Assembly (NCBI GenBank): GCA_028873525.1
Contig: JAGWIM010000002.1
Span: 1 to 61,021, forward strand
Direction of reading: 5' to 3'
Source: Pseudomonadota bacterium
GTDB taxonomy: Bacteria > Pseudomonadota > Alphaproteobacteria > Rickettsiales > SXRF01
DNA: 61,021 nt
Shown here: piece by piece, positions 28,754-30,914 of the stretch
Layout: the number at the start of each line of letters is the position of its first letter
Numbering within the stretch: the first letter of the stretch is position 1
Notes under the pieces: model-generated
The model's database searches: none
The model's input: only the letters and a program-made list of their open reading frames with translations
Told to the model about the DNA's origin: nothing
Position numbers and translations under genes: made by a program

Positions 28754-30227
28754 AAACCTGAGAGTTTGATTCTGGCTCAGAACGAACGCTGGCGGCAGGC
28801 TTAACACATGCAAGTCGAACGCTGTAGCAATACAGAGTGGCGCACGGGTGAGTAATACATGGGAACGTGCCTTGGAGTCCGGGATAACCGCGGGAAACTG
28901 TGGCTAATACCGGATATTCCCCGCGGGGGAAAGATTTATCGCTCCAAGATCGGCCCATGCCAGATTATGGTAGTTGGTGGGGTAAAAGCCTACCAAGCCT
29001 ACGATCTGTAGCTGGTCTGAGAGGACGACCAGCCACACTGGAACTGAGACACGGTCCAGACTCCTACGGGAGGCAGCAGTGGGGAATATTGGACAATGGG
29101 CGCAAGCCTGATCCAGCCATGCCGCGTGAGTGATGAAGGCCTTAGGGTTGTAAAGCTCTTTTGTCAGGGAAGATGATGACGGTACCTGAAGAATAAGCAC
29201 CGGCTAACTTCGTGCCAGCAGCCGCGGTAATACGAAGGGTGCTAGCGTTGTTCGGAATTACTGGGCGTAAAGCGCGCGTAGGCGGCTTTTCAAGTCAGGG
29301 GTGAAATCCCACGGCTCAACCGTGGAATTGCCTTTGAAACTGTAAAGCTGGAGTGTCGGAGGGGATAGCGGAATTCCTAATGTAGAGGTGAAATTCGTAG
29401 ATATTAGGAGGAACACCGGTGGCGAAGGCGGCTATCTGGACGACAACTGACGCTGAGGCGCGAAAGCGTGGGGATCAAACAGGATTAGATACCCTGGTAG
29501 TCCACGCTGTAAACGATGGGTGCTAGCTGTTGGGGGGTTACCCCTCAGTAGCGTAGCTAACGCGTTAAGCACCCCGCCTGGGGAGTACGGTCGCAAGATT
29601 AAAACTCAAAGAAATTGACGGGGACCCGCACAAGCGGTGGAACATGTGGTTTAATTCGAGGCAACGCGAAGAACCTTACCAGGATTCGACATGCCCTCTA
29701 TGGATTCCCGAAAAGGAATCCTTCACTTCGGGTGGGAGGAGCACAGGTGCTGCATGGCTGTCGTCAGCTCGTGTCGTGAGATGTTGGGTTAAGTCCCGCA
29801 ACGAGCGCAACCCTCGTCCTCTGTTGCTAACAGGTAATGCTGAGAACTCTGAGGAAACTGCCGGTGATAAGCCGGAGGAAGGTGGGGATGACGTCAAGTC
29901 CTCATGGCCCTTACATCCTGGGCTACACACGTGTTACAATGGCGGTGACAATGGGTCGCGATCGCGCAAGCGCTAGCCAATCCCAAAAAGCCGCCTCAGT
30001 TCGGATTGCACTCTGCAACTCGAGTGCATGAAGCTGGAATCGCTAGTAATCGCGGATCAGCACGCCGCGGTGAATACGTTCCCGGGTCTTGTACACACCG
30101 CCCGTCACACCATGGAAGTTGGTTCCGCCTTAAGCCGCCCTTAAAAGCGTCCACGGCAGGGTCAATGACTGGGGTGAAGTCGTAACAAGGTAGCCGTAGG
30201 GGAACCTGCGGCTGGATTACCTCCTTT
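28754..30227 (+). rRNA. rrs: 16S ribosomal RNA (complete, about 1,474 nt), alphaproteobacterial
   Basis: The 5-prime end is AGAGTTTGATTCTGGCTCAG. The conserved blocks GTGCCAGCAGCCGCGGTAA, ATTAGATACCCTGGTAG and GTACACACCGCCCGTCA are all present. The 3-prime end is GGATTACCTCCTTT. Ends are good to within about 5 nt. Confidence 0.97.
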
Positions 30228-30242
30228 CTAAGGATTTTGTTT
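30204..30242 (+). repeat. 39-bp direct repeat, copy 1 (last 24 nt of 16S plus 15 nt of trailer)
   Basis: ACCTGCGGCTGGATTACCTCCTTTCTAAGGATTTTGTTT is identical to 30876-30914. Confidence 0.95.
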
Positions 30243-30343
30243 ATTTCAGTATGTTGGGGATCATCCTCAGCCTCTGCCTGATTAAACGAATCATCTTACA
30301 TGACATGCCGCCGCCTGCGCCTAAATGCTCACACAAACTAAAA

Positions 30344-30380
30344 AGGCCTCGGCGTAAGCTGGGGCCTTTTTGTTTGTTTG
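30344..30380 (+). terminator. Rho-independent terminator about 115 nt after the 16S 3-prime end
   Basis: The hairpin AGGCCTCggcgtaagctGGGGCCT is followed by TTTTGTTTGTTTG. Confidence 0.65.
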
Positions 30381-30410
30381 TGGCAATGGCCTATGTTATT
30401 CATAAAGCGC

Positions 30411-30653
30411 ATGAAAACGACCCGCTATTTTGAAGAAGACGTATTAGGTAAAAAACGTCCTTATATGAAACGTGAGTGGTGCATGGAGGCAATTCAGTCT
30501 CCTGACCATAAAATGCTTCAACCGGACGGCAGAGTGCGCTATTATAAATACATTGCGGAAGTACAGAAATTCGTTCGCGTTATTACGCTTGCAGATGGTG
30601 AAACCGTACATAACATATTTTTCGACCGCCGCTTTAAACCTAAGGATCATTGA
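30411..30653 (+). CDS. Small conserved hypothetical protein, probable partner (toxin-like) of the downstream DUF2283 protein
   Basis: 80 aa: MKTTRYFEEDVLGKKRPYMKREWCMEAIQSPDHKMLQPDGRVRYYKYIAEVQKFVRVITLADGETVHNIFFDRRFK. It resembles small proteins that often sit next to DUF2283 genes. The region is low-GC, and only 2 nt separate its stop from the next ATG. Confidence 0.6.
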   Translation: MKTTRYFEEDVLGKKRPYMKREWCMEAIQSPDHKMLQPDGRVRYYKYIAEVQKFVRVITLADGETVHNIFFDRRFKPKDH

Positions 30654-30655
30654 AC

Positions 30656-30871
30656 ATGAAATTCCATTACGATAAGGAAACCGACTCACTTTATATCGAT
30701 TTTATCGATGGACCGGGTGTCGATAACGTCATTGTCACTGATGACATTGTCGCTGACATCGACGTACAAGGGCGTTTAGTTGGGCTGGATATCCAACATG
30801 CCAGCCAGCAATCCGATTTGAGCAATTTTATCGTAGACGGCATGAATCCTGTTCTAAGGCCAGCGATATAA
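30656..30871 (+). CDS. DUF2283-domain protein
   Basis: MKFHYDKETDSLYIDFIDGPGVDNVIVTDDIVADIDVQGRLVGLDIQHAS matches the DUF2283 pattern (YDxExDxLYI...D...GxxVGIEI). Confidence 0.8.
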   Translation: MKFHYDKETDSLYIDFIDGPGVDNVIVTDDIVADIDVQGRLVGLDIQHASQQSDLSNFIVDGMNPVLRPAI

Positions 30872-30875
30872 ATTC

Positions 30876-30914
30876 ACCTGCGGCTGGATTACCTCCTTTC
30901 TAAGGATTTTGTTT
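30876..30914 (+). repeat. 39-bp direct repeat, copy 2 (an ectopic copy of the 16S 3-prime end)
   Basis: Perfect copy of 30204-30242. It begins 5 nt after the DUF2283 stop and ends 27 nt before the next ATG. Confidence 0.95.

Follow-up and report, generated by a model that had tools for sequence, protein, structure and literature searches.

A partial copy of the 16S rRNA tail as the probable scar of cassette insertion behind an unlinked 16S gene in uncultured Alphaproteobacteria

The stretch of DNA analyzed here, referred to as the window, comprises 61,021 nt of contig JAGWIM010000002.1 (GCA_028873525.1), a metagenome-assembled genome (MAG) of an uncultured alphaproteobacterium. Its + strand contains a 39-mer, ACCTGCGGCTGGATTACCTCCTTTCTAAGGATTTTGTTT, in exactly two places (30204-30242 and 30876-30914); by chance, no match would be expected. 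The first occurrence (copy 1) is the end of a 16S rRNA gene, and the second (copy 2) lies behind a pair of small genes. Copy 2 is best explained as a recombination scar, that is, an ectopic duplicate of the 16S tail left by cassette insertion. Small cassettes would have accreted by recombination at the conserved 16S tail, and a deletion would then have shortened the duplicate. This account as a whole is considered more likely than not. A role of copy 2 in regulation, or as the place where a single 672-bp mobile element docked, is improbable. The piling up of cassettes behind a stand-alone 16S gene recurs in a number of related uncultured alphaproteobacteria.

The features on which the argument turns are the following.

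28405-28433, + strand: 5' (leader) arm of the pre-16S processing stem, forming inverted repeat I2 with 30302-30330
28754-30227, + strand: 16S rRNA gene, unlinked and full length (Rfam RF00177, 1548 bits)
30204-30242, + strand: copy 1, the 24 nt of the 16S 3' end and the first 15 nt of the trailer (Rfam 16S end at 30227)
30243-30338, + strand: native trailer of the 16S gene, with the 3' arm of the processing stem at 30302-30330 (colinearity with relatives)
30339-30382, + strand: T1, native intrinsic terminator of the 16S unit (terminator scan, 30339-30372)
30411-30653, + strand: p80, open reading frame (ORF) of 80 aa, putative toxin partner of DUF2283
30656-30871, + strand: DUF2283, putative antitoxin (PF10049, E = 9.6e-13)
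30876-30914, + strand: copy 2, ectopic partial 16S tail, -9 to +29 relative to GGATTACC (exact repeat)
30942-31496, + strand: p184, orphan ORF of 184 aa with 37% GC, second cassette
31501-31535, + strand: T2, which resembles 16S terminators (terminator scan, 31501-31528)

The exact 39-bp duplication at 30204 and 30876 had been reported in an earlier note on this DNA (the original prediction), and it was borne out by an exact count. The division of copy 1 into the last 24 nt of 16S and 15 nt of trailer, made in the same note, agrees with the 16S end placed by Rfam. Its description of the interval as holding the 16S terminator and a low-GC gene pair also held: T1 was found, and the pair has 43% GC against 58% for the window. 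The similarity between the copies stretches to 42 nt with one mismatch (repeat D2).

The gene-proximal copy belongs to the native 16S unit

The junction between the 16S end and its trailer was scanned over one genome per GTDB species, which yielded 93 loci. Below, L-numbers are labels of related loci retrieved for comparison, and positions in the 16S tail are given relative to the 16S end. Twenty-two of the 93 loci form a clade of MAGs designated "Rickettsiales/Alphaproteobacteria bacterium", and a scan of metagenomes added 28 further loci, some of them 96-98% identical in 16S. In all 22 genome loci the 16S gene (85-94% identical to that of the window) has its own trailer and terminator without a 23S gene behind it, and ends in the unusual GGATTACCTCC. 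The window host is a member of this deep clade of uncultured Alphaproteobacteria. Rfam and tRNA searches detected no 23S, 5S or tRNA gene in the 61-kb window, and its 16S is an unlinked gene with its own terminator. Unlinked rRNA genes are known (bioRxiv 10.1101/705046), and the organization described there likewise sets the 16S gene apart from 23S and gives it a terminator of its own. That work covers the arrangement only; cassette accretion or 16S-tail duplications behind unlinked 16S genes do not figure in it.

The layout of the 16S unit in the clade consists of a leader, the 16S gene, a trailer of about 110 nt and a dedicated terminator. In every clade locus, genomic (22) or metagenomic (28), the 16S end leads into TTTATT, as copy 1 does in the window; next come, in this order, a small hairpin, TAAACGAATCATCTTACAT, an arm of the CTGCGCCTAAATGCTC type and an intrinsic terminator. 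The hairpin type of T1 is common to L098 and L122. All close relatives align colinearly with the block 28748-30378, at identities of about 94-95%. The leader was predicted to form a stable duplex with the trailer after copy 1 (-74.3 kcal/mol, z = -4.0 versus shuffles), whereas its pairing with the sequence after copy 2 gave z = -0.7. This leader-trailer duplex was strong in 11 of the 12 relatives tested, and BLAST detected complementarity equivalent to I2 in seven relatives. Because the trailer and terminator are conserved in relatives, the block is colinear and the leader pairs with the copy-1 trailer, copy 1 is identified as native and copy 2 as ectopic. Copy 1 and, behind it, the trailer and T1 (these two at 30243-30378) are the native, vertically inherited 3' flank of the 16S gene.

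These observations run counter to the treatment of the 672-bp interval as one insert, since its first 136 nt (30243-30378) are native. The empty site expected for such an insert, with 16S joined directly to the sequence from 30915 onward, was present in no relative; the same trailer and terminator as after copy 1 always follow the gene.

The whole clade reads GGAUUACCUCC where the canonical sequence is GGAUCACCUCC (30214-30224 in the window). The change is a C-to-U beside the anti-Shine-Dalgarno (anti-SD) sequence, at C1533 by our own count of E. coli numbering. An inverted repeat (I1) with 30-nt arms of GGCCAGC repeats, 28630-28659 and 28712-28741, is located in the 16S leader just 5' of the mature end. 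Intervening sequences inside 16S genes are rare. Compared with the window, the 16S genes of some relatives carry insertions of 84-507 nt, at about positions 69-82 in L118 and L113 and at about 180-200 in L105, L108 and L063, which may be intervening sequences.

Partial tail copies separate small cassettes in relatives

Copy 2 begins 4 nt (ATTC) after the end of the DUF2283 ORF at 30871. The 39-mer is invariant in all clade loci, which were retrieved with motifs lying inside it, and because of this invariance the perfect identity of copy 2 tells nothing about its age or about selection. The right junction of copy 2 is confirmed by an independent NCBI MAG contig, L094 (GCA_028873305.1), which matches the window from 30901 on without a difference (100% identity). 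L094 begins inside copy 2, a break made by the short-read assembler at a true repeat. Exact-protein look-ups with p80 and DUF2283, each with two start choices, returned no record, so these gave no independent support for the left junction.

Ectopic copies were sought by BLAST of each locus's own tail (-300 to +260) against the remainder of that locus, and repeats were counted over non-redundant loci that had 1.2 kb or more of downstream sequence (44 clade, 55 outgroup). Tail-derived repeats were present in 6 of the 44 clade loci and in 2 of the 55 outgroup loci, both outgroup cases being different in nature. L003 has four partial tail copies downstream of 16S. The first extends from -72 to +191, through the terminator (264 nt, 98.9% identity), and is located 1.49 kb downstream, just after HigB/HigA; three shorter trailer/terminator copies follow at +2.2, +3.0 and +3.7 kb. 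Two partial copies were found in L104 and one each in L077 and L098, and the shorter tail repeats span just +76 to +162, +101 to +165 or +152 to +191. L115 contains a decayed copy of the 16S end (-40 to +32) 1.3 kb downstream, and its right boundary lies at GGATTTTGTTT, as in the window. The ectopic junction in L115 reads TTTTGTTTTATT, as in the terminator tail, whereas natively the 16S is followed by TTTTGTTTATT. In L114, a 232-nt, 86%-identical pseudo-16S 3' fragment with trailer and terminator has an internal indel and is detached from the 16S body. The left ends of the ectopic copies vary, falling at about -232, -72, -40 and -9.

The partial copies in relatives separate small cassettes encoding HigBA, ParE/RHH, a TIR effector or p80/DUF2283, and the cargo of the arrays comprises HigB(Gp49)/HigA, ParE/RHH, a CAP12/Pycsar-type TIR protein, DUF6680, MazF and BrnTA. 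L003 corresponds to its sister lineage L104 with two additions, the HigBA region with a tail copy and a 224-aa ORF with a terminator copy. By this comparison, what is gained or lost at a time is one cassette together with one repeat. Recombinases were sought with Pfam among the island proteins, the two nearest right neighbors, the nearest left neighbor and the cargo of L003, L077, L098 and L115, and none was found in this set; genes farther out from the islet were judged from ORF translations alone. The 16S-tail motif was absent from IMG/VR, and the island DNA had no match among PLSDB plasmids or INPHARED phages.

A conserved element of about 100 nt (...GCAAATCCCATGAGACGTGCTTCGCAGCTCATGGCTG...) was observed just behind 16S terminators or cassettes in L125 (about 770-850), L110 and L052, in the last of these after the 16S terminator. 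L110 has two copies of 100 nt with 95% identity, 1017 nt apart. No Rfam match at the gathering threshold was obtained for this element in the loci scanned.

The p80/DUF2283 pair occurs with and without a tail copy

The two genes are co-oriented with a gap of 2 nt, and they are kept as a pair in L078, L053, L110, L125, L003, L104, L113, L114 and L126-L129. No Pfam or PADLOC match was obtained for p80, and its 184 homologs are all unannotated. The AF2 model of p80 is confident (pLDDT 93.6) and has an alpha-alpha-beta4 fold. Its best full-length PDB neighbors in Foldseek are the BECR RNase toxins CdiA-CT(NC101) and HigB2, at TM 0.52-0.54 and E of about 0.18, which is not significant. p80 is accordingly a putative toxin. 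A toxin-antitoxin (TA)-like nature of the pair, as originally proposed, is consistent with the DUF2283 assignment, the predicted fold of the small partner, the short gap and the conservation of the two genes together.

In L078 (also sampled as L119), L053, L110 and L125 the pair comes immediately after the 16S terminator, with 81-88% amino acid identity, and a more divergent form of it has the same place in L003, L104 and L113. No copy of the 16S end follows DUF2283 in any of these seven loci. Equally close homologs of the pair occur elsewhere, behind gshA (L126-L128), behind flhB (L129) and in another operon, so that p80/DUF2283 is a small, promiscuous module. The 81-88% amino acid identity despite about 92% 16S identity, together with 43% GC in the pair against 58% in the window, points to horizontal movement. 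A foreign origin is likewise indicated by the 37% GC of the p184 cassette. The proposal of a mobile cassette tied to the 16S 3' flank is therefore retained in part, as horizontal small cassettes gather there, although no single 672-bp element flanked by att sites was found. The narrower proposal, that the cassette targets the extreme 3' end of 16S, fails against the four genomes in which the pair stands behind the 16S terminator without a 16S-end copy and against the locations behind gshA and flhB.

In L078 the pair lies between a native-type hairpin (GGCTCTGG...) on its upstream side and a cassette-type hairpin (GCCCCAGTAG...) downstream. L125 has a near-identical cassette in which the two hairpins have changed places and a 17-nt lead-in is repeated. 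Such a swap would be expected from a circular cassette that carries a terminator-like segment and can recombine to the left or to the right of the hairpin.

In L114 (oriented 236-330 and 332-761) the p80/DUF2283 cassette splits a MazF-like gene after about 20 codons, with no more than TTTG/TTG microhomology at the junction; one TA cassette is here inserted into another.

Proposed history: cassette accretion followed by deletion

The swapped terminators and the cassette-plus-repeat indels lead us to infer acquisition by homologous recombination. The ancestral state would have resembled L124, with 16S, tail, terminator and p184. Only two homologs of p184 were found in 5.8 billion proteins. One of them, in L124, is directly behind the trailer and terminator of a genuine 16S gene in a related organism (88% identity, GGATTACCTCC end); the other, in L123, has an unrelated context. 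T2 is 79% identical to T1 (repeat D6) and 83% identical to the native 16S terminator of L118. The position of the L124 homolog and the resemblance of T2 to a relative's 16S terminator speak for this scheme.

Circular or otherwise recombinogenic DNA would then have brought in p80/DUF2283 joined to a 16S-tail fragment, from about position 1519 through the terminator. This fragment would have recombined with the chromosomal tail by homology in a Campbell-type single crossover, which the clade-invariant 16S tail would make workable in any clade member. The product would be 16S-tail-T1-cassette-[partial tail copy]-p184, a state that L003 still shows. The trailer and terminator of the second copy would subsequently have been deleted between the TTTTGTTT that ends the 39-mer and a similar T-tract past the terminator, as in L115, leaving 39-42 nt fused to the p184 leader. 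The deletion step is supported by the TTTTGTTTTATT at the L115 junction, which is of the terminator-tail kind. TA and defense cargo would predominate in such arrays because cassettes flanked by direct repeats are readily lost unless they are addictive or useful. The circular intermediate, the reliance on homology and the order of events are the parts of this scheme that we infer; the native status of copy 1, the recurrence in relatives, the cassette-plus-repeat indels and the variable boundaries were observed.

Several points weigh against this scheme. No circular intermediate, empty-site read or excision product was observed. A 39-nt patch of identity is short for RecA-dependent exchange, and because it is short by itself two further steps, a longer duplicate and its later deletion, have to be assumed. 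The left junction (DUF2283 stop-ATTC-ACCTGCGG) was found in one assembly. At all four well-resolved junctions the tail copy starts 0-5 nt past the preceding stop codon, a regularity not expected from simple homologous recombination. The window and L115 share their right boundary at GGATTTTGTTT, which the site preference of some enzyme could explain equally well. In a specificity control, other direct repeats, such as D1 (described below), were also common in the islets. Tail-derived repeats are thus one class of cassette boundary and not the sole one, and they may be a symptom of a more general cassette mechanism.

A broader proposal, that the invariant 16S tail is a universal integrase-free landing pad for which cassettes carry a tail fragment as a portable homology arm, is advanced tentatively and is less likely true than false. 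If it is true, integron-like TA and defense arrays would be expected behind unlinked 16S genes across members however divergent elsewhere, and biology's most conserved gene would serve in addition as a docking site for accessory genes across species.

Alternative explanations for copy 2

Site-specific integration would make the 39-mer an attB/attP core, at which a tyrosine or serine recombinase encoded elsewhere inserts cassettes and restores the 16S end. Structural RNA genes classically carry att sites at their 3' ends, and tRNA and tmRNA islands integrate in this manner. The exact direct repeat, the ectopic right end at GGATTTTGTTT in both the window and L115, and the cassette-plus-repeat indels are all compatible with such a mechanism. 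Nevertheless, the native trailer stands behind copy 1 and not behind copy 2, and the pair follows the terminator in L078, L053, L110 and L125 with no 16S-end copy. The ectopic left ends range from about -232 to -9 and other repeats span trailer/terminator sequence only, so there is no fixed core, and the protein scans around the islet and in related arrays revealed no recombinase. The suggestion that the 39-mer is an attachment or target site was dropped on these grounds, and site-specific integration is considered improbable.

Decay of a second 16S copy would require a larger segmental or tandem duplication followed by deletions that spared the last 24 nt of the gene and 15 nt of trailer. The longer pseudo-16S fragments in L114 (232 nt, 86% identity, internal indel) and L003 (about 98 nt) could be read as a decay series. 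However, three of the four successive copies in L003 hold trailer/terminator sequence only, and one big duplication leaves the swapped terminators of L078 and L125 and the cassette-plus-repeat indels unexplained. There is little chance that this account is correct as it stands. It overlaps with recombinational accretion if the duplicated segment came on incoming DNA.

A selected cis-regulatory RNA is very unlikely. Copy 2 would in this case act as an anti-SD mimic that sequesters the ribosome-binding site (RBS) of p184, or as an rRNA-tail mimic for processing enzymes. The p184 start consists of AAGGAG at 30931-30936 and an ATG at 30942. In the fold of 30876-30950 (-11.9 kcal/mol), both the minimum free energy and the centroid structures pair CCUCC with the GGAG of this site, which upholds the pairing predicted earlier. 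The match between the copies is perfect (39/39), and as the terminator scan found no terminator between DUF2283 and p184, copy 2 would be transcribed in the operon. On the other side, the fold is no stabler than dinucleotide shuffles (z = -0.16, or -0.31 in longer context), and any SD sequence complements the anti-SD by definition. The ectopic copies are decaying in L114 and L115, an element of this kind is missing from the 5' untranslated regions of the p184 homologs in L123 and L124, and with a clade-invariant 39-mer perfect identity is no sign of selection on copy 2. Masking of the RBS by the ectopic anti-SD was accordingly rejected as evidence of function (z of about -0.2 versus shuffles), and a selected regulatory role of copy 2 is unsupported.

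An assembly artefact, in which a 672-bp circle or tandem amplification would exist beside a true 16S-39mer-p184 form, or the join would be chimeric, is the least likely explanation: the independent short-read contig L094 does break exactly inside copy 2 and the left junction is in one assembly only, but any assembler needs reads with the DUF2283-to-16S-fragment junction to produce it, a trailer-less chromosome would lose the conserved processing stem, and analogous structures occur in independent assemblies of other projects (L003, L114, L115).

Comparison with known systems

Among known systems, the 16S islet appears by analogy to fit best with the TA islets free of mobile genetic elements (MGEs) that are treated in PMC13617665. 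According to that text, which cites Mazzamurro et al. 2025, such islets enter by homologous recombination at flanking core genes. They are likewise tiny, hold TA-type genes only, show no mobility genes and undergo toxin erosion, comparable to the MazF remnant in the window, and they have variable cargo between conserved flanks, as in the window versus L108. Relative to the islets in the same text, the left flank here differs in being a near-invariant 16S tail, which may permit exchange across very divergent genomes. Partial flank duplicates are also left here, which would not result from a simple double-crossover replacement.

The islands at tRNA and tmRNA genes likewise have foreign genes behind a structural RNA gene and a direct repeat of the RNA 3' end (39/39 here); tandem accretion is possible in them and TA or defense cargo is frequent. 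The present case differs in that the target is a 16S rRNA gene and the units measure 0.5-1.3 kb. Moreover, the native flank stands behind the gene-proximal repeat instead of the distal one, the extents of the repeats vary by event, and no integrase was found among the scanned proteins.

Integron arrays resemble the present arrays in consisting of serial small cassettes, mostly co-oriented and promoter-poor, each followed by a hairpin-bearing repeat. Gain and loss by a cassette plus one repeat is shared as well, and TA cassettes are common, as in chromosomal integrons. No intI was found among the scanned neighbors and no attI was found, and inspection of the boundary repeats by eye only, with no attC model run, revealed no attC consensus. 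In contrast to integrons, the boundary repeats here are fragments of the local 16S trailer/terminator or D1, with variable end points. Single islands of E. coli also have direct repeats without a dedicated recombinase, and excision and integration via the repeats have been proposed for them; those islands have fixed repeats, whereas the present pattern is clade-wide, tied to the 16S tail and variable in its repeats.

The literature consulted yielded no report of 16S 3'-end duplications or of cassettes behind unlinked 16S genes, and no paper mentioning the assembly accession turned up. To our knowledge, the integration hot spots recognized so far are tRNA, tmRNA and a few protein genes. If the recombinational explanation is true, the 16S flank would join this list, and conservation of the rRNA end would provide a shared homology anchor for cassette exchange without a dedicated mobility enzyme. 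Very divergent bacteria could then swap small TA and defense cassettes via the 16S end, and there would be an explanation for islets without MGEs in those uncultured lineages whose rRNA genes are unlinked. Partial 16S 3' fragments break short-read assemblies (L094, L125) and could give spurious 16S-end matches or mis-joins in MAGs. The clade-wide pattern of tail copies merits a systematic survey, while the 39-mer of the window is itself probably a neutral scar.

Other genes of the islet and its borders

The variable islet extends from about 30380 to about 32760, with the DUF815 core gene as its right border. GC content is 37-45% downstream of about 30380 and about 58-60% elsewhere in the window. 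The order is p80, DUF2283, copy 2, p184, a decayed MazF-like gene and BrnT/BrnA, followed by DUF815 on the opposite strand. Intrinsic terminators were detected at 30339-30372 (T1), 31501-31528 (T2) and 31974-31997 (T3). The remaining features are listed below.

31597-31933, + strand: decayed MazF/PemK-like toxin gene (partial Pfam PemK_toxin match)
32002-32065, + strand: D1a, cassette-boundary repeat (direct repeat)
32150-32687, + strand: BrnT/BrnA toxin-antitoxin pair (PF04365, PF14384)
32696-32759, + strand: D1b, second cassette-boundary repeat (direct repeat)
33125-33982, - strand: DUF815 ATPase gene, first conserved core gene right of the islet (Pfam)

No Pfam match, even with E up to 10 included, and no PADLOC match was obtained for p184. 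Compared with its intact counterpart in L108 (133 aa), the MazF/PemK-like gene (31597-31933) has lost about 65 nt internally, and a cognate antitoxin for it is not evident. D1 is a 64-nt direct repeat with 84% identity and a 33-nt exact core that brackets BrnT/BrnA. Relatives of D1 are found right behind DUF2283 or MazF cassettes in L107 (4663-4725), L108 (4586-4641) and L114 (about 790-850, oriented), and D1 is a second class of cassette-boundary repeat. The DUF815 region is syntenic with L108 at 77% nucleotide identity. L108, the closest syntenic relative (97.5% 16S identity), has wholly different cargo between the 16S terminator and the shared segment from MazF/D1 to DUF815.

Farther to the right, at 34916-39889 and adjoining a sulfotransferase, a 1657-aa ORF encodes a multidomain glycosyltransferase of unusual make-up. 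Its annotated domains are repeated GlcNAc-transferase-like ones, AhpC-TSA and 2OG-Fe(II) oxygenase.

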